Source: Acidimicrobiia bacterium (lineage in GTDB: Bacteria > Actinomycetota > Acidimicrobiia > Spongiisociales > ZC4RG35). From it: 64,000 nucleotides of DNA. The position numbers and the translations under genes are program-made. Positions 18,428 to 27,919 of this stretch are shown here, one piece after another; position 1 is the stretch's first letter; the number at the start of each line of letters is the position of its first letter. The notes beneath the pieces are model-generated. The model saw only the letters and a program-made list of their open reading frames with translations. It did not search any database and had not been told where the DNA came from. The DNA lies in NCBI GenBank assembly GCA_041744375.1, contig JBGTLA010000095.1, forward strand, positions 131,018 through 195,017. Direction: 5' to 3'.

Positions 18428-18455
18428 GAAACCCGCTCGGCGTTGAGCGGGTTTC
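18428..18455 (-). terminator. stem-loop (11-bp stem) just outside attL
   Basis: GAAACCCGCTC-ggcgtt-GAGCGGGTTTC. It is homologous to the terminator hairpin that follows the intact tRNA-Pro at 27731..27754. Confidence 0.4.
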
Positions 18456-18460
18456 TCACT

Positions 18461-18507
18461 GTCGGGCCGGGGAGATTCGAACTCCCGACCTCTTGACCCC
18501 CAGTCCA
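18461..18507 (-). repeat. partial tRNA-Pro copy (anticodon loop to 3' end) = attL of integrated element
   Basis: The minus-strand read GACUGGGGGUCAAGAGGUC-GGGAG-UUCGAAU-CUCCC-CGGCCCGAC is identical or near-identical to the 3' half of the tRNA at 27760..27834. The T-stem carries compensatory changes, and the 19-bp core GACCTCTTGACCCCCAGTC is identical. Confidence 0.7.
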
Positions 18508-18740: not shown

Positions 18741-19208
18741 TTAGACGGCAATCCGGGCCAGCTCGAGGATCTCGGCCCGCTCATTGGCGCGGTGGTCACG
18801 GCAGTAGATCGCGTCAAAGTCGAGGCGAACGTCGATGGCCTTCCCGCAAGTCGGGCAGCGAGCCGTCGTCGCCATGGCGTGAGGCAGAGACATTCGGCGG
18901 TCTCGCGCCCATTCGGCGACGGCATGATGCCTGCGCCTGGCGGCAAGCTCGCCCACAGCCATGACCACCATCGCCGCCAGGTCGAGCGGCGACTCCTCCC
19001 ACAACCAGAACCGCACTTCTAGGTGAGTGAGCCCGCCGTCGACACCGGACAGCAACCGCCCGGCCGGATACTCGCGAGCCCAGGCGACCACGTCCTCAGA
19101 GGTCCGACAGTCCGCCAAACCGGCGGCGATTAGCTGAGCCTCCTCGGGACCGACCCAACGTGACACGCCTTCCTCGAAGGTCGGGGATTTGGTCATCGGT
19201 CGGGGCAT
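18741..19208 (-). CDS. hypothetical protein with C-terminal zinc-ribbon-like motif
   Basis: The C-terminal ~155 aa of track ORF 18741..19517 look protein-like (CPTCGKAIDVRLDFDAIYCRDHRANERAEIL); the N-terminal part of the track ORF is Arg/Pro-rich GC artefact. Last gene of the element operon. Confidence 0.45.
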   Translation of the reverse strand: MPRPMTKSPTFEEGVSRWVGPEEAQLIAAGLADCRTSEDVVAWAREYPAGRLLSGVDGGLTHLEVRFWLWEESPLDLAAMVVMAVGELAARRRHHAVAEWARDRRMSLPHAMATTARCPTCGKAIDVRLDFDAIYCRDHRANERAEILELARIAV

Positions 19209-19576
19209 CACGACCACCGGGCCCTGGCCGCCTTGCGCGCCCTTTCGGAGGCCGAGAGGTTGTCCCACTCCGAGACCTCGGCCTGCGCCTCGGGAAGCCT
19301 TATCCGGCTTAAGAGTTGGGCGAGGAGAGACCGCTGCAGACGCAGCTCGACGACAGCCGGGTGAGTGATCGGAGTTCCGGCCGCGTTCGTCGTGGTCAGC
19401 GGCGCAACGGCCACTTCGGCCTCGAGGCGGGCCACGAGATCGGCGGTCCGAGCGGCCTCTTCGAGCACTTTTAACTCGTCTTCGCGCCACAAATAGCCCC
19501 GTTGCAGGCGCCTCCACAACGCCTTTCCGGCCCGCCCCAACCCCAGAGGAGCCCTAAGTGGCTTGGTATCGGCCAC
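19208..19576 (-). CDS. terminase small-subunit-like protein (P27-family-like), tentative
   Basis: 122 aa; the pattern ...KALWRRLQRGYLWREDELKVLEEAARTADLVARLEAEV...THPAVVELRLQRSLLAQLL resembles P27-family TerS. Position matches the terS slot of PICI packaging modules. Confidence 0.45.
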   Translation of the reverse strand: MADTKPLRAPLGLGRAGKALWRRLQRGYLWREDELKVLEEAARTADLVARLEAEVAVAPLTTTNAAGTPITHPAVVELRLQRSLLAQLLSRIRLPEAQAEVSEWDNLSASERARKAARARWS

Positions 19577-20824: not shown

Positions 20825-21201
20825 ACGGTCCTCTTCTCGACGAAGGTGTCCAAGTCTGTGCGTCGGATCATCACCCTTCGCCCCACCCGTACCTCGGGGA
20901 GGCTCCCGTTTCGGCGGAGGCGGTCGAGGTGGGAGGTCGAAACCCCCAGCACCTCGGCCGCTATCCGTCGGCTTAGGAGCATGGCGATGCCACTTGCACC
21001 ATCTTGGGGGACTTCGTTGGTCTCGGCTCTGGTCTGAGGAGCCGTGACGACTGAGGCCGACTCCTGATGACGAAGAGCCCGGATCAGTTGTGCCAGTTCG
21101 GTGGTGGGTGGGTGGCCTCGGGCGAGTCGGTCTGAGGCACCGTGGAGCAGCGTCTCCACCATCTCGGCTCGGAGGCGGTCGCTCACGTCGAGGAGGATCA
21201 C
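20806..21201 (-). CDS. helix-turn-helix DNA-binding protein (excisionase/MerR-like HTH)
   Basis: C-terminal HTH MLLSRRIAAEVLGVSTSHLDRLRRNGSLPEVRVGRRVMIRRTDLDTFVE. The GTG start is GTGA-coupled to the upstream 71-aa gene; a shorter product from the ATG at 20982 is possible. Confidence 0.5.
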   Translation of the reverse strand: MILLDVSDRLRAEMVETLLHGASDRLARGHPPTTELAQLIRALRHQESASVVTAPQTRAETNEVPQDGASGIAMLLSRRIAAEVLGVSTSHLDRLRRNGSLPEVRVGRRVMIRRTDLDTFVEKRTVWESLQ

Positions 21202-21413
21202 AACGGCCGCCAGATGGACTCTTCGCCTTGGGCGGCGACCAGGGCATCCCAGAACGCTTGGCGATGCTCCTCACGTGAGGGGATGGTGGCGTGGCGTCTG
21301 CGCCGGCCGTTGCCGTTGGGACCACCATTTGCGCAGAAGTGGTAGAGCTCGATGACATGCGGCGGGACGTTGTGCCACTCTCGGCCACATGCTGGGCAAT
21401 GGCGGGAGGTCAT
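21198..21413 (-). CDS. small zinc-ribbon protein, first gene after the iteron region
   Basis: MTSRHCPACGREWHNVPPHVIELYHFCANGG... (71 aa). Its stop is translationally coupled to the next gene. Confidence 0.4.
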   Translation of the reverse strand: MTSRHCPACGREWHNVPPHVIELYHFCANGGPNGNGRRRRHATIPSREEHRQAFWDALVAAQGEESIWRPL

Positions 21414-21713
21414 ATCAGGGGACACGGTTGGGACACAGTTCTCTTTTTTCAGCTTCGATGGCGGCACCGATGCGGGGCACCGTGTCCCGTGTCCCTCCTT
21501 AGAGAGGGGGAGGGACACGGTTGAACACGGCTATGTCCCATGACCGTGTCCCTGCTTGGGACACGGTTGGGACACGGGGGACACGGTTGCTGTTTCGTGC
21601 TTGGTTGCTGCGTTTCCGGTTGGTTGGTTGGGACACGGTTGGGACACGGTTTCGGCGGGTGGCTGGTAATTCGGTTTTTTCCGACACGGTGTCGTGTCCC
21701 TGGTCGGGACACG
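21414..21713. repeat. iteron array, putative replication origin of the element
   Basis: At least 12 copies of GGGACACGG(TTG) in both orientations (e.g. 21419, 21476, 21509, 21535, 21558-21589, 21630-21652, 21682-21710), interspersed with AT-richer tracts. Located immediately 3' of the helicase gene. Confidence 0.6.
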
Positions 21714-22790
21714 CTATTTCCCATCATCTTCCAGCCCTTCGCTCTTCTCGATGAAGGTCTCGTAACCCTTGTCGGTGAGGTAGTGGGCGTGGGCTGAGCC
21801 TTGCTTCTCCATGCGGACATACCCGTCTGTGATCATGGCGGCGATGGCCGAGTCGATGAGTTCGCCCTTGCCGCCGGCGTCTCGGATGGATCGTTTCGAT
21901 GATCCGGGCGCGCCGTCGAGGTATTGGGCGATGCGTTGGCGGACTCCGTAGTCGTTGGCGACGGCGTCGGTGGTCACTTGGTAGGTGACGCCGCCGTCGG
22001 GCCACGCGGTGAGTTTGACGGTGGCGGCCAGGTCGCCGGGTGAGTGACCGCGGACGTAGCCGGGCCGATCTTTGGCGACTCGCACCGAGACGATTCCCTC
22101 GACGGGGTCTCCGAGGTAGGCGCGGTGCACCTTGCGTATCGCGGTGACGTCGTAGGAGGCGCCGTCGGTGCCGGCCTTCTTGTGCTGCGATCCGATCGCC
22201 CACCCTTTGCGCCCTTCGGTGGATTTGGTCTGGTGGTCGATCACCGCGACGGCTGGGCCGGTAGCGGCGATCAGTTTGGGGATCCTGCGAATCCACTCGG
22301 CGGTGTCGGGTGTCGAGTTGGGGTCGAGATCTTCGATATTCATCGACTCGGACACTCCGTCGACCACGACCAGGGCCGGCTTGGTGGCGTCGAGAGCCTC
22401 GAACAGCTCGGCGCGCTGGTCGTCGCCTAGCGTTTCGTCGGGGCGCATGTAGACGAAGCGATTGGGGTCGGTGATGACCTCCTCGGGGACACCCAACGCC
22501 TGCAGGCGGGATTTGATGGAAGCCGGATGGTCCTCGAAATCGACATACGCGCAGTTGCCGCCGTCCAAAAGAATCTGCGCCACGGCGATGAGGAGGACCC
22601 ACGTCTTGTGCGATTCGGACTCACCCTGGAACCAGTGGACCCGCCCGGGGTAGATGAGCCCGACGTCGTCCACCCGCATGAAGATGGTGGCTTCCTCGAC
22701 GGTCATCCCGACGAGGGACATGTCGATTGGTGTCCAGGTGGTCTCCGGTGGGGCGGTGCGAGCCTCGTCGTCGAGGGGTGGCACCGTCAT
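21714..22790 (-). CDS. RepA/DnaB-like AAA_25 ATPase (replicative helicase-like)
   Basis: RecA-fold ATPase with Walker-A-like GESESHKTW (the Gly before Lys is replaced by His) and a Walker B (LVVVDGVSE); ATGA-coupled to Prim-Pol. Confidence 0.6.
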   Translation of the reverse strand: MTVPPLDDEARTAPPETTWTPIDMSLVGMTVEEATIFMRVDDVGLIYPGRVHWFQGESESHKTWVLLIAVAQILLDGGNCAYVDFEDHPASIKSRLQALGVPEEVITDPNRFVYMRPDETLGDDQRAELFEALDATKPALVVVDGVSESMNIEDLDPNSTPDTAEWIRRIPKLIAATGPAVAVIDHQTKSTEGRKGWAIGSQHKKAGTDGASYDVTAIRKVHRAYLGDPVEGIVSVRVAKDRPGYVRGHSPGDLAATVKLTAWPDGGVTYQVTTDAVANDYGVRQRIAQYLDGAPGSSKRSIRDAGGKGELIDSAIAAMITDGYVRMEKQGSAHAHYLTDKGYETFIEKSEGLEDDGK

Positions 22791-23647
22791 GCCCGCCTCC
22801 TTAGGTCTCGGCTGTCTCTGAGCGCCTTGGCGGCTGCAGAGAGATCGCCGTCATGTTCGAGGACAGCCCAAGCCCGAAACCGCGTGTAGCCGACCGGGCG
22901 GTCCGGTTCGGTGACCTCAAAAGCAGTGTTCGTGGAGTAGACGAAGAGACAGTCGTGGCGGACGGTGGCCGAGATCGGTGCGGTGGCGGTGGGGTGCCGC
23001 CACTTCTCGCCGGCATGGTCGACCGCGACCCATCCGAAAGGCTCGAGAACCTCGCGCCAAGTGGTCGAAGCTGTGAAAGCGTCCGCTGGCGAATCTCCGT
23101 CTATGGCCCACTGTCTCGGCTTCGGCCGCTTTGGCGGCGGCGGTGGAGCGAGCAAGAGCTGGAGCCGGAGCGGAGCCTCGCCTATGGGGATGCGCGGGTC
23201 GACCCAGGTGTACGGTCGGGCGCTATCGGGATGAATCGAGGGCGGCAGCACGACGTAGCCGGAATGCGTCTTCACGTCGACGCCGCGTGGGAGACGCCTT
23301 GTGTAGATGTTGCCGCCAGGATGCCGCCAGTAGTAATGGCGGCCACCATCACCACGACCCGACAGGGCGGTGAGCGTGTCCGGGAGCTCCCCTACTGCAT
23401 CAATGAGATCTCTGCCGACCGCGGGGTTGGTTCGTGGATCTGTGTCAAGAACGAAACACCCCGCGGGGACCCGGCCGCCGATGTTGGCGTTTGGGTATCG
23501 CTTCCACCATGTGGCGATGACATCGAGATCGGTGGTGGCGTCGAGGACACCGTTACCGCCGTTCCGCTTCGGGATAGCGGGCACTTTCCCGCGGAGCGGG
23601 AAAATCTCCCATCCTTTTCGGGCGTAGTCGAGAGCGTGGTCGATCAT
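22787..23647 (-). CDS. bifunctional DNA primase/polymerase (Prim-Pol) domain protein
   Basis: The N-terminus ALDYARKGWEIFPLRGKVPAIPKRNGG...LDATTDLDVIATWW...NANIGGRVPAGCFVLDTD matches the Prim-Pol N-terminal domain; start at MIDHAL (ATG ~23647). Confidence 0.7.
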   Translation of the reverse strand: MIDHALDYARKGWEIFPLRGKVPAIPKRNGGNGVLDATTDLDVIATWWKRYPNANIGGRVPAGCFVLDTDPRTNPAVGRDLIDAVGELPDTLTALSGRGDGGRHYYWRHPGGNIYTRRLPRGVDVKTHSGYVVLPPSIHPDSARPYTWVDPRIPIGEAPLRLQLLLAPPPPPKRPKPRQWAIDGDSPADAFTASTTWREVLEPFGWVAVDHAGEKWRHPTATAPISATVRHDCLFVYSTNTAFEVTEPDRPVGYTRFRAWAVLEHDGDLSAAAKALRDSRDLRRRA

Positions 23648-24006
23648 TTCAACCTCTGCCAAACCTGATTGAGCGCCTGGCTTGCTCGGCCGTTTCCGCC
23701 GGCGTCGGGATGCCACACTCTCTGAAGCGCCTTCCACGTCGCAGCGCGTATCTCGGCCGGGATTCGCGAGAACACGATCTCCAGCGCATCCTCAAGCGGA
23801 CCGTCGACGACCCCGTTGAGTCGGTCGACCAGACGTTGAACGTCCTCCGCGAATCGGAAAGGCACCCGCCAGCATTTCAGGCCAGGGTCCCACCTCGCCG
23901 CGGGCATGGCCTTGGCGTGGTCCTTGTCCTCAAACGCCACCCACAGACCAATATCACCGTCGCCGAGGTTCCTGAACGTGGCAGGACGCCGATTAGAGTG
24001 CGTCAT
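23644..24006 (-). CDS. DUF5710-like N-terminal domain fused to a C-terminal J-domain (HPD motif)
   Basis: N-terminus: LWVAFEDKDHAKAMPAARWDPGLKCWRVP. C-terminus: ATWKALQRVWHPDAGGNGRASQALNQVWQRL, i.e. J-domain helix II plus the HPD motif. Confidence 0.5.
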   Translation of the reverse strand: MTHSNRRPATFRNLGDGDIGLWVAFEDKDHAKAMPAARWDPGLKCWRVPFRFAEDVQRLVDRLNGVVDGPLEDALEIVFSRIPAEIRAATWKALQRVWHPDAGGNGRASQALNQVWQRLK

Positions 24007-24157
24007 GTCGTCGTCCTGTGAGCAGCTTGAGGGCGACTGGTGGCACCGTGCCCGCCCGCGGTGCGAACGGTGGAGGGGCCCGCTTCGGCGGGCTCCTCGT
24101 CTTGTAGACCAAGCACGGCCAGGAGCGGGGCGCGTGGGGTGATCGTGGTGGTGGTCA

Positions 24158-25078
24158 TCACGCCACCTCCCCGGAGATCAACTTCCGGATATCACCGAGG
24201 ATGGTCTTCTCGGACTCCTCTGCGGCGAGAGTGGAGTTCCACATCTCGGGGTCGTCGACAAGATCGAGAAGTGCCTGTTTCAACCGTTCCCGCAGGATCG
24301 GTGCAGGCAACGCCTCAACTTCAACGGCTTGTGGGACCAGTCCCTCTAATCGGCAATGGGCCAGGAATTTGGCGTAGTTGACGTCGTTCTTGTTGAGATC
24401 GTGGCTGACGAGATCGCCTTGGCGCACGTCATCGGGGGTGATCGCCACCCGGACGAACTCGATGTCGACCAGGTCCTTCGAGTAGCGGCGTAGACGTTCC
24501 TCCAGGGACCGAGCAATCGCCAACCCCGATGGGTCCCAATCACCTACGTAGAGGATGGTGACGGGCTTCCCGATGGTCTTGTACGCCACCGCCGCGTTGT
24601 AGGCGAAGGTCTTGGGAGCTTGGCCTTTGCATGGGAAGAGACCGATCCCGTAAGGGCGTGTGATCGGGTCGAGGACGCCAGCGATGGAATCGGACTCGCA
24701 CCACACTTCTACTCGCCGGGGTTGAGACGCCCACAGGTTTCGCCGGTACGACTCCTGCCAGCGAGCGAACGCGTCCTCGATGTCCTCGTACATGGTGTCG
24801 ATGCGGACGGACCGAGACGAGTCGGTGATCCAACCCCAGGGCAGAACTTCGTCTTCGCGGAGCTTCCCTAGCTCCCGGCAGACCATCTTGTAGTTGCGTC
24901 GCTTCGTCGCGCCAGTGTCCTTGGCCCACAGCACGGCGATACCGGAGTAATAGACGTGGCGGACGTTGCACGGCTGATTGCGTTCCACCAGCTCGTAGAT
25001 GGCATCCCGGAAGTGGGCCATCTCGGCCTTGGTCCGTCGAGCAGACGGCGGATTCTGAGACGTAGAACTAGCGGGCAT
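24158..25078 (-). CDS. Spo11/TopoVI-A-like protein (putative CAP-domain tyrosine + Toprim E...DxD)
   Basis: Putative catalytic Tyr motif NVRHVYYSG. Toprim acidic residues VWCESDS and ILYVGDWDPSG are spaced ~87 and ~65 aa apart, matching TopVIA/JetD-type spacing. 306 aa. Confidence 0.45.
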   Translation of the reverse strand: MPASSTSQNPPSARRTKAEMAHFRDAIYELVERNQPCNVRHVYYSGIAVLWAKDTGATKRRNYKMVCRELGKLREDEVLPWGWITDSSRSVRIDTMYEDIEDAFARWQESYRRNLWASQPRRVEVWCESDSIAGVLDPITRPYGIGLFPCKGQAPKTFAYNAAVAYKTIGKPVTILYVGDWDPSGLAIARSLEERLRRYSKDLVDIEFVRVAITPDDVRQGDLVSHDLNKNDVNYAKFLAHCRLEGLVPQAVEVEALPAPILRERLKQALLDLVDDPEMWNSTLAAEESEKTILGDIRKLISGEVA

Positions 25079-25268
25079 CTACGGACTCCTCCTCCGATTC
25101 GATCCCCAGCACGTCGAAAAGACGAGCACGCGAGAGGAGCAGGCGACGGCCGACCTTGATCACCGGGACGCCGGCCAGGTCGCCGGACTGGGCCTCGGCG
25201 TAGGCGGTGTTGCGGCTGACACCGAGCAGGAGGGCGGCTTCGGGGATTGTGATGGTGGCGGACGTCAT
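25068..25268 (-). CDS. excisionase-like HTH protein (Xis/AlpA-like)
   Basis: 66 aa: ITIPEAALLLGVSRNTAYAEAQSGDLAGVPVIKVGRRLLLSRARL. Confidence 0.6.
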   Translation of the reverse strand: MTSATITIPEAALLLGVSRNTAYAEAQSGDLAGVPVIKVGRRLLLSRARLFDVLGIESEEESVDAR

Positions 25269-25271
25269 TGC

Positions 25272-25505
25272 TCACTGACCCCCTTCGGTCACGAGGCGCC
25301 GTAGGTCCGCTAGGGCTTGGGCGTAGGCGCTGCGAACCCGGCCGGAGGGGTTGCGGTCTCCCGTTTCCCACTTGGCGACGGCTTGGCGGGTGACGCCTAC
25401 GACGTCGGCTACGTCTTGGAGAGTGAGTCCGGCTGCCACGCGCAGAGCTCGCCGCGCTGCGGGGGGCGGAAGGCGCTTCGCATTGGCGATAGTCTCGACA
25501 TCCAT
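25272..25505 (-). CDS. XRE-family HTH transcriptional regulator
   Basis: LTLQDVADVVGVTRQAVAKWETG, the canonical XRE HTH; divergent from the + strand regulator/int operon. Confidence 0.65.
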   Translation of the reverse strand: MDVETIANAKRLPPPAARRALRVAAGLTLQDVADVVGVTRQAVAKWETGDRNPSGRVRSAYAQALADLRRLVTEGGQ

Positions 25506-25570
25506 CTGGTGACATCTTGGCGACAATCTGCTACCTTGGCAACGTCACAAATAACGAATTGAGGAGACAG

Positions 25571-26128
25571 GTGGCGCAGCAAAATAACCCCGAGGGCGGA
25601 TGGTCCCTGAAGGTCAACTTCAAGATGGCGTTTCCGGACCCATTCATCATCCATCGGGGCATGGTCTATCCAAGGGTCCTGTCGGCGATGTGGCGGCGAG
25701 AAGATGGGCTCCAGCTCGACATCGACATCGAGGTGGAGGCTGAGGCTGGGGCGAGAGTTCGGCGCTTCACAGTCACAGGTGCCGACATGATTGACTCGGC
25801 GGACTTTCGGCAGCCGGTTCAGTCGATGGCGAAGCGAGCGGTCGCAGCGATGGCGGCGGAGCCCGATGGGCTTGGCAATGCGACGTTCCCACCGTCTCAG
25901 CCGGCGTCGGTGGTGGTTGGCCGGGTGACGAGCCGTACTAATGACGCTCGGCTAACGCGGGTTGCCGACCTTTATGGGCAGGCTCTCAGCGACGGGGAGC
26001 CAGTGACCTCGTTGATCGAAAAGGAGGAACACGTGAGCCAGTCAACGGCGTATGGACTGATATCGCGGGCGCGTAAGGCGGGATTCCTCCCGCCATCGAG
26101 ACCAGGAAGGAAGGCGACAAGCGAATGA
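25571..26128 (+). CDS. putative regulator co-transcribed with int (Stl-like position)
   Basis: GTG start with a GAGGAG RBS; C-terminal HTH-like segment HVSQSTAYGLISRARKAGFL; its stop overlaps the int start (ATGA). Confidence 0.45.
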   Translation: MAQQNNPEGGWSLKVNFKMAFPDPFIIHRGMVYPRVLSAMWRREDGLQLDIDIEVEAEAGARVRRFTVTGADMIDSADFRQPVQSMAKRAVAAMAAEPDGLGNATFPPSQPASVVVGRVTSRTNDARLTRVADLYGQALSDGEPVTSLIEKEEHVSQSTAYGLISRARKAGFLPPSRPGRKATSE

Positions 26129-27309
26129 GCGACAAGCGTCGACCCAGAGGAACCGGATCGGTTCGGGAGTGGAACGGTCGTGTGCAAGCCCGTTACACGT
26201 TCTTTGATGCACAGGGGCATCGACGCGAACGATCGAAGCTCTTCGACACCAGGACAGAGGCCCGTGGTTGGCTCACAGATCGCCTTGCGGAGGTCGCAGG
26301 CGGTTCTGTGGCCGATGCCAGGTCGATCACCCTAGGCGAGTACCTGGGTCACTGGCTGGGCAGCCTGGGAATGGCACAACTCGAAGCGGCGACATTGTCG
26401 TGGTACCGCTCCGCGGTGGAGCGTCACATCGTCCCTCAGATCGGCCACGTCCGCCTTGACAGGATCACGCCGGTGATGGTGGAGGCGTTCCTATCGGAGC
26501 GGGCCTCGAGCGGCCGGCTGCGGCGACCAGGCGACGACGAGACAACCCCGAAGGGGCTCGGGCCGTCCAGTGTCCGACGTCTCACCGTGACCTTGCATAA
26601 GGCACTTGACGCGGCCGTGCGCAAGGGAATGCTGGCCCGGAACCCGGTCGACTCCGCTGACAAACCCAAGATGCCCGCCTCAGACGTGACTCTCGACGTG
26701 TGGGCACCCGACGAGATAGCAGCGTTCCTTCAGGCGACAAGACAGCATCGCTTGGCGGCCGTCTGGCGTACAGCGGCCATGACCGGGCTGAGACGGTCGG
26801 AGGTGTGCGGACTCCAATGGGGCGACCTCGACCTAGAGACCGGACGCCTATCGGTCCGGCGTGCGATCGTCTCAGTGGATGGTCGGCCTCATGTGAAGCC
26901 ACCGAAGACAGCGAAGTCTCGACGTACGGTCGAGCTTGACGCCGGGACCGTGGCGATACTGCGGGAGTGGCGGAAGTCACAGCTCGAGGAACGGCTGCGA
27001 GCTGGGGAGGTGTGGGAAGCGGGGGAGTGGGTCGTGGCCGACGAGCTAGGCCGGTTCCTCCGTCCCGATCATGTGGGACGCCTGTTCTCCCGTCTGGTCG
27101 CCTCAGCGGGGCTCAGGCCGATCACGTTCCGCAAGTTGCGCCACAGTCATGCCACGGCGCTCCTGGTGGCCGGCGAGGCTCCCAAGGTCGTGCAGGAAAG
27201 GCTCGGGCACGCTTCGATCACGATGACGATGGACATCTACTCGGCAGTCCTGCCCAATATGCAACGAGACGCAGTCGAACGGTTGGCGTCGATGATGGAG
27301 GCCCAGTAG
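26125..27309 (+). CDS. int: tyrosine-type site-specific integrase
   Basis: N-terminal SAM-like domain and a C-terminal catalytic domain (LRHSHATALLVAGEAPKVVQERLGHASITMTMDIYSAVLP). Transcribed toward the tRNA-Pro 3' end. Confidence 0.9.
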   Translation: MSDKRRPRGTGSVREWNGRVQARYTFFDAQGHRRERSKLFDTRTEARGWLTDRLAEVAGGSVADARSITLGEYLGHWLGSLGMAQLEAATLSWYRSAVERHIVPQIGHVRLDRITPVMVEAFLSERASSGRLRRPGDDETTPKGLGPSSVRRLTVTLHKALDAAVRKGMLARNPVDSADKPKMPASDVTLDVWAPDEIAAFLQATRQHRLAAVWRTAAMTGLRRSEVCGLQWGDLDLETGRLSVRRAIVSVDGRPHVKPPKTAKSRRTVELDAGTVAILREWRKSQLEERLRAGEVWEAGEWVVADELGRFLRPDHVGRLFSRLVASAGLRPITFRKLRHSHATALLVAGEAPKVVQERLGHASITMTMDIYSAVLPNMQRDAVERLASMMEAQ

Positions 27310-27754: not shown

Positions 27755-27759
27755 CGGGG

Positions 27760-27834
27760 TTTCTGCCGGTCGGGCCGGCGGGATTCGAACCCACGACCTC
27801 TTGACCCCCAGTCAAGCGCGCTACCAAGCTGCGC
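27760..27834 (-). tRNA. tRNA-Pro (anticodon GGG)
   Basis: Hand-folded cloverleaf: acceptor CGGGCCG/CGGCCCG; D-arm GCGC-AGCUUGGUA-GCGC; anticodon arm CUUGA-CUGGGGG-UCAAG (U33, GGG, G37); variable loop AGGUC; T-arm GUGGG-UUCGAAU-CCCGC; discriminator A; CC encoded. Confidence 0.85.
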
Positions 27835-27919
27835 CACGGCCCGTGTCGGGGGTATCGTAGCGGTTCGCCCGGCGGCTGTGTTGACGGCGGCCCGGGCGGT
27901 ACCCCGCCCACGGAGGCTC

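Follow-up and report, generated by a model that had tools for sequence, protein, structure and literature searches.

A Mini-A-like relative of the topoisomerase VI A subunit heading the replication module of a satellite-like island in an Acidimicrobiia bacterium

Gene, motifs, and family assignment

In a 64-kb stretch of contig JBGTLA010000095.1 from an Acidimicrobiia bacterium (64,000 nucleotides; hereafter the window, in whose numbering all positions are given), a satellite-like island of 9.3 kb carries, at positions 24158 to 25078 of the reverse strand, a gene whose product we assign with high confidence to the Mini-A group, as a member of a divergent, mainly actinobacterial subclade. The gene is an ATG-started open reading frame (ORF) encoding 306 amino acids (aa). 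A Shine-Dalgarno-like GGAGGAGGAG lies 7 nucleotides (nt) 5′ of the ATG, and the guanine-plus-cytosine (GC) contents at codon positions 1, 2, and 3 (62%, 44%, and 76%) form the pattern of a genuine high-GC gene. An N-terminal tyrosine-bearing, 5Y-CAP-like domain precedes a Toprim domain, a reading that draws on the ORF itself, PHROG 6247, the likeness of an AlphaFold model to topoisomerase (Topo) VI A subunits, and tblastn matches to named Mini-A proteins.

A first-pass annotation of the window had reported this ORF together with three motifs, all of which are present as placed. The first, NVRHVYYSG (residues 38 to 46; codons at 24941 to 24967, reverse strand), contains R40 and the predicted catalytic tyrosine Y44; Pfam TP6A_N covers residues 22 to 46, and hhalign aligns the motif with TKREAYY of Top6A. 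The second, VWCESDS (residues 125 to 131; codons at 24686 to 24706, reverse strand), contains E128, the Toprim glutamate, where the first strand ends, as judged from the motif, the AlphaFold model, and the alignment. The third, ILYVGDWDPSG (residues 175 to 185; codons at 24524 to 24556, reverse strand), holds the Toprim DxDxxG with D180 and D182 and aligns with FVDGDPYG of Top6A. A further element, AVEVEAL (residues 251 to 257; codons at 24308 to 24328, reverse strand), is the positional equivalent of the T2BI box, with E253 and A256, in an alignment with SWELDAL of phage Mini-A proteins. The spacings, first estimated at ~87 aa from Tyr to Glu and ~65 aa from Glu to DxD, measure 84 aa (Y44 to E128) and 52 aa (E128 to D180), compared with 96 and 52 aa in Top6A (n = 27 full-length sequences). 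The corrected Glu-to-DxD distance thus fits a Toprim core better than the earlier estimate did and equals that of Top6A. A Pfam scan of the 306-aa protein found no domain beyond two sub-threshold matches, TP6A_N (E = 0.016; exactly over the tyrosine motif) and DUF2399 (E = 0.093; over the DxD motif, about residues 173 to 197).

Mini-A proteins were described as stand-alone homologs of the type IIB topoisomerase A subunit (Takahashi et al., NAR Genom Bioinform 2019/2020; PMC7671362), carried by phages, archaeal viruses, and integrated elements without a B subunit and stated to be of unknown function (PMC7671362). In later literature, their function is still given as unknown or hypothetical. The first-pass annotation had taken the architecture to be known otherwise only from Top6A/Spo11 and JetD/MksG, overlooking two groups already in print, Mini-A and Topo VIII (PMC7671362). 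PHROG 6247 ("DNA topoisomerase") is matched at 1e-36, in an alignment spanning residues 28 to 291. By tblastn, it matches 75 phage records, among them Pseudomonas phage NP1 (2e-17), a named Mini-A example in a review (PMC7614492), and it matches the gene annotated as "Topo mini-A" on archaeal plasmid P-8H_18 at 4e-20.

The C-terminal box departs from the published Mini-A signature, as AVEVEAL stands where five aligned phage homologs have SWELDAL, the signature itself. Relative to xWELDAL, the Glu, Ala, and Leu are retained, while Trp is replaced by Val, Leu by Val, and Asp by Glu. In a broad alignment of 78 relatives (27 to 100% identity; drawn from 80 genome loci of many phyla and five phages), the Glu is kept in 78 of 78 sequences and the Ala in 77; xWELDA[LM] and xVE[VAI]EA[LI] each account for about half of the boxes, and intermediate forms (CVELDAM and CVELEAL, for example) also occur. 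The work that defined the T2BI box, and that gave its Glu and Ala structural roles in Top6A, took its consensus from 23 sequences (PMC7671362). The published WELDAL signature therefore fails to cover the whole Mini-A group.

Conservation of the catalytic residues

A total of 565 relatives were found in the protein database, mostly actinobacterial and labeled as hypothetical or "DUF2399 domain-containing." A 36-sequence actinobacterial alignment (A1) is invariant at R40, Y43, Y44, E128, D130, D180, D182, P183, G185, E253, E255, and A256. Among the 78 broader relatives, R40, D180, D182, P183, and G185 are, like E253, kept in every sequence, and Y44 and E128 are, like A256, kept in 77, so that the conservation on which the first-pass annotation had staked its motifs (here R40, Y44, E128, D180, and D182, each in 77 to 78 of 78) is borne out. 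Position 43 is Y, C, or F across the 78 relatives. This variability fits the RxxY/F-Y motif, in which the second tyrosine is the catalytic residue (PMC7671362). The near-invariance of the catalytic residues across phyla argues, at the level of sequence, for an active enzyme.

It could also be supposed that the protein is a noncatalytic DNA-binding or regulatory protein that has retained a topoisomerase-like fold, as the annotation of some phage homologs as "DNA binding protein" and the lack of any reported activity (PMC7671362) might suggest. We consider this highly improbable, since the Tyr, the Arg, the three Toprim acidic residues, and the T2BI Glu persist in 77 to 78 of 78 sequences, across phyla and at 27 to 30% identity, a pattern characteristic of a selected active site.

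Four other residues, C37, C150, H226, and C242, are invariant in A1 (n = 36), but each occurs in only 28 to 31 sequences of the broader set of 78. Together, they might make up a metal site specific to this clade.

Relationship to Top6A and to JetD

Kinship with Top6A/Spo11 is indicated by family profiles, structure, and profile-profile alignment. TP6A_N is matched by 17 of the 36 relatives in A1 (best, 2.3e-6). An AlphaFold model built from the alignment (predicted local distance difference test [pLDDT] score, 85; predicted template modeling [pTM] score, 0.79) has a helical N-terminal domain with Y43 and Y44 on a helix, followed by a canonical strand-helix Toprim core in which E128 ends strand 1 and D180 and D182 come directly past strand 3. 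Comparison of such a model with Top6A was among the checks that the first-pass annotation had proposed, and the top Foldseek matches in the PDB were indeed Topo VI A subunits (probability, 1.0; E, 1e-4 to 2e-3), namely, the Methanosarcina mazei DNA complexes 9o8p_A, 9o7o_A, and 9o0g_A and Methanocaldococcus jannaschii 1D3Y, with small Toprim proteins next. Template modeling (TM) scores against Topo VI A were low (0.36), which we attribute to differing domain orientation. An hhalign comparison of the 78 Mini-A relatives with 47 full-length Top6A sequences gave P = 9.1e-5 (probability, 59%; 188 columns), with co-linear motifs (SVRxvYY versus TKREAYY and YvGDwDPSG versus FvDGDPYG).

Only the broadened 78-sequence profile gave a significant hhalign P value against Top6A; narrow profiles (A1 versus Top6A fragments or full-length Top6A; effective number of sequences, ~2.4) were not significant, though the correct motifs were aligned. 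The full-length Top6A set came from metagenome loci, as a Top6A-fragment query yielded only truncated Top6A proteins, and two long contigs that carried them had broken genes. Sequence searches of PDB chains with the single protein and two profiles returned nothing significant (Top6A 1D3Y appeared at E = 1.6, over the DxD motif), and the BFVD viral structure library gave no useful match. The Toprim domain and the overall homology to Top6A are well supported, and the compact Top6A/Spo11-like architecture proposed in the first-pass annotation, a tyrosine-bearing N-terminal domain joined to Toprim, is one on which TP6A_N, Foldseek, and hhalign agree. Family scans of the island ORFs found no Top6B, GHKL, or HATPase-family gene. 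We rejected assignment as a Top6A ortholog because both the Top6B-binding N-terminal part and a nearby Top6B gene are absent.

The resemblance to JetD that had also been suggested is limited to ~25 residues around the DxD motif. JetD profiles in PADLOC matched residues 171 to 198 only (E, 0.001 to 0.02), and the PADLOC scan gave no significant match to a defense system (best E = 0.001, over 25 residues). The substrate of Wadjet is small circular DNA. A JetD/MksG-type nuclease, or a mimic of one, might belong to a Wadjet-like system or keep a host Wadjet from attacking the small circle once it is excised, and the DUF2399 label of some database homologs and the weak DUF2399/JetD match at residues 173 to 197 point in that direction. 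Against this, the profiles leave the JetD N-terminal domains unmatched, the best fold and profile matches are to Top6A, and the catalytic tyrosine is conserved, whereas JetD is described as lacking one. There are also no JetA, JetB, JetC, or SMC-type genes among the island ORFs, the largest of which encodes a 394-aa integrase, in agreement with the earlier remark that SMC-like partners are missing. A JetD identity was rejected on the grounds of the restricted match, the lack of JetABC genes, and the conserved tyrosine, and we find a role as a JetD/MksG-type nuclease or mimic hardly credible. The shielding of small circular elements from Wadjet by Mini-A would be a rarer alternative.

The satellite-like island

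The island is delimited by a 57-nt direct repeat (D2; 88% identical, with a spacing of 9308). One copy (27757 to 27813) is the attachment (att) repeat over the 3′ part of a tRNA-Pro gene (27768 to 27843, reverse strand), and the other (18449 to 18505) is the distal att repeat, which marks the far end of the island and consists of a displaced fragment of the tRNA 3′ part. The island has a tyrosine integrase gene (26125 to 27309, forward strand; Pfam Phage_integrase, 1.9e-24). Upstream of the integrase gene, and overlapping it, is a gene for a 185- to 203-aa protein without assignment (25517 to 26128, forward strand; ORF and gene call), which is divergent from an HTH_3 regulator gene.

The HTH_3 (XRE-type) gene (25272 to 25526, reverse strand; family scans) leads a leftward operon with overlapping stop and start codons, which runs from HTH_3 through HTH_17, Mini-A, a 51- to 52-aa ORF, DUF5710, PrimPol, and AAA_25 to a cluster of iterons. 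The HTH_17 gene, of the excisionase/AlpA-like type (25068 to 25268, reverse strand; Pfam HTH_17, 1e-8; PHROG excisionase families), overlaps the Mini-A start with its stop codon. The 51- to 52-aa ORF (24003 to 24161, reverse strand; ORF and gene call) overlaps the Mini-A stop (ATGA) and has no family match. It is followed by genes for a DUF5710 protein of 120 aa (23644 to 24006, reverse strand; Pfam DUF5710, 1.7e-6), a Prim-Pol primase/polymerase (22787 to 23647, reverse strand; Pfam Prim-Pol, 7.6e-36), and an AAA_25 (RepA/DnaB-like) helicase (21714 to 22790, reverse strand; Pfam AAA_25, 7e-13). The primase/polymerase gene has an ATGA overlap, and its product is 286 aa as called on an identical metagenome contig, with the longest ORF extending to 23737. 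The location of the Mini-A gene between an xis-like gene and replication genes, as the first-pass annotation had it, is confirmed by these family scans. A scan of the operon for promoters and terminators found nothing above chance.

Directly past the helicase gene, with A-rich flanks, the iteron cluster (21419 to 21714) contains GGGACACGG in both orientations, 10 times exactly and 3 times with one mismatch. The exact copies fall at 21419 to 21649, the window has no others, and replication of the island probably starts in this cluster. A putative gene for a 106-aa product with a CPACG zinc-ribbon-like motif (21198 to 21518, reverse strand; weak Pfam match, E of ~0.01) overlaps the iterons at ~21419 to 21518. 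The C-terminal WHPDAGG of the DUF5710 protein recalls the HPD tripeptide of J-domains; a J-domain was rejected, as Pfam finds no DnaJ match there.

Beyond the iterons are a second HTH_17 gene, a 276-aa ORF without assignment, and a gene resembling those for small terminase subunits (19208 to 19576, reverse strand; PHROG 1496 "terminase small subunit," 6e-17). Scans of the island ORFs detected no capsid, tail, or other virion structural families, which, together with the terS-like gene, supports a phage-satellite lifestyle. The layout is that of a satellite resembling phage-inducible chromosomal islands (PICIs), and "satellite," the term already used in the first-pass annotation, is a reasonable label for an att-bounded island at tRNA-Pro with int, primase/helicase, iterons, and a terS-like gene.

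Gene neighborhoods of homologs

Among relatives, Mini-A recurs at the head of replication modules in integrated elements. In the 80 genome loci and the window, a tyrosine integrase gene lies ~2.3 kb upstream of Mini-A at 32 of 83 loci, and a serine recombinase gene is upstream at 6 more. Among 28 large ORFs that follow Mini-A directly in the integrase-linked loci, primase/helicase families are the commonest: AAA_25 in 7, DUF5906/D5_N in 4, DUF927, RepB_primase, and Toprim in 2 each, and VapE, DUF3631, and Prim-Pol in 1 each. The four nearest relatives with long contigs (56 to 62% identity) all have int, a regulator, HTH_17, and Mini-A. The gene 3′ of Mini-A in these four is DUF3631, a Prim-Pol fusion, AAA_25, or unannotated, with 4-nt overlaps (one involving a cut 221-aa ORF), and one of them has a Terminase_4 gene at a position corresponding to that of the terS-like gene of the island. 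In tblastn searches with the other island proteins, most neighbors were not common to other Mini-A loci.

Of 88 loci, 33 have an HTH_17-type gene directly upstream in the same orientation; these are essentially the integrase-bearing ones, and none of the five phage loci is among them. We therefore rejected HTH_17 and Mini-A as an obligatory two-gene module; a better reading of the HTH_17 gene is as the AlpA/Xis-type gene with which island operons usually begin. In phages, Mini-A is found amid genes for DNA polymerase, primase, thymidylate synthase, MazG, and similar nucleotide-metabolism functions.

These neighborhoods bear on a role proposed in the first-pass annotation, that of an anti-phage or anti-helper effector. 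Satellites often carry defense genes, and Toprim nucleases occur in defense systems, so an effector carried as satellite cargo might cleave helper or competitor DNA, or act against the host. The weak JetD matches around the DxD motif might be taken as a sign of such a function, and the dispensability of Mini-A for related replication modules (below) fits accessory cargo. The PADLOC result given above is not significant for any defense system, however, and homologs lie amid the replication genes of virulent as well as temperate phages. Moreover, the position of Mini-A next to, and translationally coupled to, primase/helicase genes is conserved across islands with unrelated integrases and replication proteins, and such a fixed, coupled position is unlike a variable defense hotspot. 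We regard a defense effector as quite unlikely.

A second proposal, that Mini-A is a nickase or replication initiator, draws on elements with few replication genes. The complete circular archaeal plasmid P-8H_18 (8776 bp; 17 small genes) has "Topo mini-A" as its sole annotated replication-type enzyme, which is consistent with the published idea of Mini-A as a replication protein. In skuldviruses, where other replication genes are absent, Mini-A has been hypothesized to be the replication protein. On this reading, a site-specific nickase would start rolling-circle replication through a covalent 5′-tyrosine link, as HUH endonucleases do, and the catalytic tyrosine kept in 77 of 78 relatives would be the nucleophile. 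The island, however, already has a full set of PrimPol, helicase, and iterons typical of theta-type initiation, and most relatives also carry a primase/helicase. Related modules, in addition, exist without Mini-A, namely, two IMG/VR contigs (L175 and L177) with helicases 32 to 39% identical to the AAA_25 protein of the island and no Mini-A in the sequence fetched. Mini-A is thus not obligatory for such replicons, and its dispensability argues for an accessory factor and against an initiator. An initiator role in the strict sense is therefore unlikely, and what stands of the original proposal is its general direction, in the weaker form of an accessory replication function.

Proposed role

We propose, by analogy with Top6A and at about even odds, that Mini-A is an accessory tyrosine- and Mg2+-dependent DNA breakage-rejoining enzyme that manages topology or opens circles, aiding replication of the element and the supply of concatemers for packaging. 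As in Top6A, the working form would be a homodimer. With R40 setting its position, Y44 would attack the backbone of the DNA to form a covalent 5′-phosphotyrosyl link; the Toprim residues E128, D180, and D182 would bind Mg2+, and E253, in the C-terminal box, would make contact with the Tyr/Arg pair. Excision from tRNA-Pro would give a presumed 9.3-kb circle, and the breaks made by Mini-A, whether transient or directed, would fall in the DNA of the element itself. Mini-A keeps its place at the front of replication modules of several unrelated kinds, which suggests that its substrate is the element's own replicating DNA. There, Mini-A might assist the PrimPol/AAA_25/iteron module by relieving or resolving topological links; alternatively, it might open the circle and so give rise to rolling-circle or recombination-driven concatemers for packaging by a hijacked terminase. 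The sequence analysis demonstrates the homology, the conservation of the catalytic residues, the position of the gene within its operon, and the recurrence of the gene order; we infer the dimer, the cleavage chemistry, the substrate, and the biological role alike.

Several observations weigh against this proposal. The existence of L175- and L177-type modules has been noted above. The loci used for gene order were picked for having Mini-A and so show association, not necessity. Many Streptomyces homologs have no integrase or primase neighbor, and in four Streptomyces-type loci, a LexA-like/S24 peptidase gene is directly upstream of the homolog, which hints at SOS-linked expression in a nonsatellite setting. 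Of the winged-helix plus Toprim fold that the first-pass annotation had predicted, the Toprim core is seen in the AlphaFold model, whereas the N-terminal domain modeled alone (pLDDT, 77) gave no significant structural match, leaving the CAP (winged-helix) fold of that domain as a prediction from sequence evidence. No biochemical assay of any Mini-A protein is reported in the literature that we found. Cleavage by Top6A requires Top6B and ATP, and an enzyme without a B subunit may therefore need some other partner.

Streptomyces homologs also include ~30 on plasmids (37 kb to 1.3 Mb; 24 to 51% identity), all annotated as hypothetical, and many at chromosomal loci with other surroundings. In one Streptomyces locus (L004), the Mini-A homolog is also near a DnaE2 and ImuB-like cassette.

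A bolder form of the proposal dispenses with a partner. Mini-A would then be a self-sufficient, B-free Spo11-type enzyme that, together with the adjacent primase/helicase, introduces a programmed nick or double-strand break with a covalent 5′-tyrosine in the excised circle and so switches circle copying to concatemer formation. We treat this as a speculative, rather unlikely extension of the accessory role. If it holds, the island would offer a tractable bacterial model of Top6A/Spo11 cleavage without the ATPase subunit.

The Mini-A family itself was already known, though uncharacterized, and the identity of the protein would not surprise a specialist; what is new is a member of a divergent subclade in a satellite context. 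Within the Top6A/Spo11 family, Mini-A forms a third, widespread branch for which we found only functional hypotheses in the literature, and the locus bears on how a Spo11-like core acts without a B subunit. The 9.3-kb island provides a clean genetic setting: its replication module is defined and has an obvious iteron origin, and Mini-A is translationally coupled to that module. Since the order of integrase, HTH_17, Mini-A, and primase/helicase recurs across unrelated islands, a replication-linked role is directly testable. The assignment also corrects the "DUF2399" or "hypothetical" label of several hundred actinobacterial proteins.

Comparison with known systems

Topo VIII, a plasmid-borne fused B and A type IIB enzyme, resembles the protein in being confined to mobile elements and in having a Top6A-like cleavage core, and the Val at the second position of the box matches that in RVELNAM of Topo VIII. 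It differs in having Bergerat/GHKL, H2TH, and transducer parts, all absent here, where the protein is about one third the size. Topo VIII also has a conserved Arg three residues past the catalytic Tyr (PMC7671362), which is replaced here by I47, following YYSG. Topo VIII identity was rejected on the absence of an ATPase/GHKL part from the 306 aa and on the box (AVEVEAL versus RVELNAM). JetD/MksG shares a Toprim domain with a DxD motif; the protein differs from it in that profile similarity is confined to those ~25 residues and in its conserved catalytic tyrosine.

With Top6A/Spo11, the protein shares a homologous catalytic core, the Glu-to-DxD spacing of 52, and a conserved, position-equivalent T2BI Glu. 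In contrast to Top6A/Spo11 proteins of about 360 to 425 aa, it has only 306 aa, lacks the N-terminal Top6B-binding region (the alignment begins at about residue 128 of a 425-aa Top6A), and has a Tyr-to-Glu linker shorter by 12 aa.

PICI-like satellites match the island in its integrase, divergent regulators, xis-like gene, primase and helicase, iterons, and terS, as well as in its size of ~9.3 kb and its location at a tRNA gene. The island is unlike them in its actinobacterial host, in having no known helper phage, and in carrying Mini-A between the xis-like gene and the primase gene.

The closest comparison is with Mini-A proteins, which likewise have ~300 aa consisting only of the tyrosine-bearing CAP part and Toprim, with RxxY/F-Y, the Toprim Glu, and DxDxxG, and which are likewise encoded by mobile elements without a B subunit; similarity to named members is direct and significant. 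The differences lie in the C-terminal T2BI box (AVEVEAL versus xWELDAL, although about half of the 78 relatives have the V-E-x-E-A form), in the Toprim motifs (CESDS and GDWDPSG versus VEKDAL and GDHDPSG), and in the carrier, which in this case is not a phage or prophage but a small satellite-like island.

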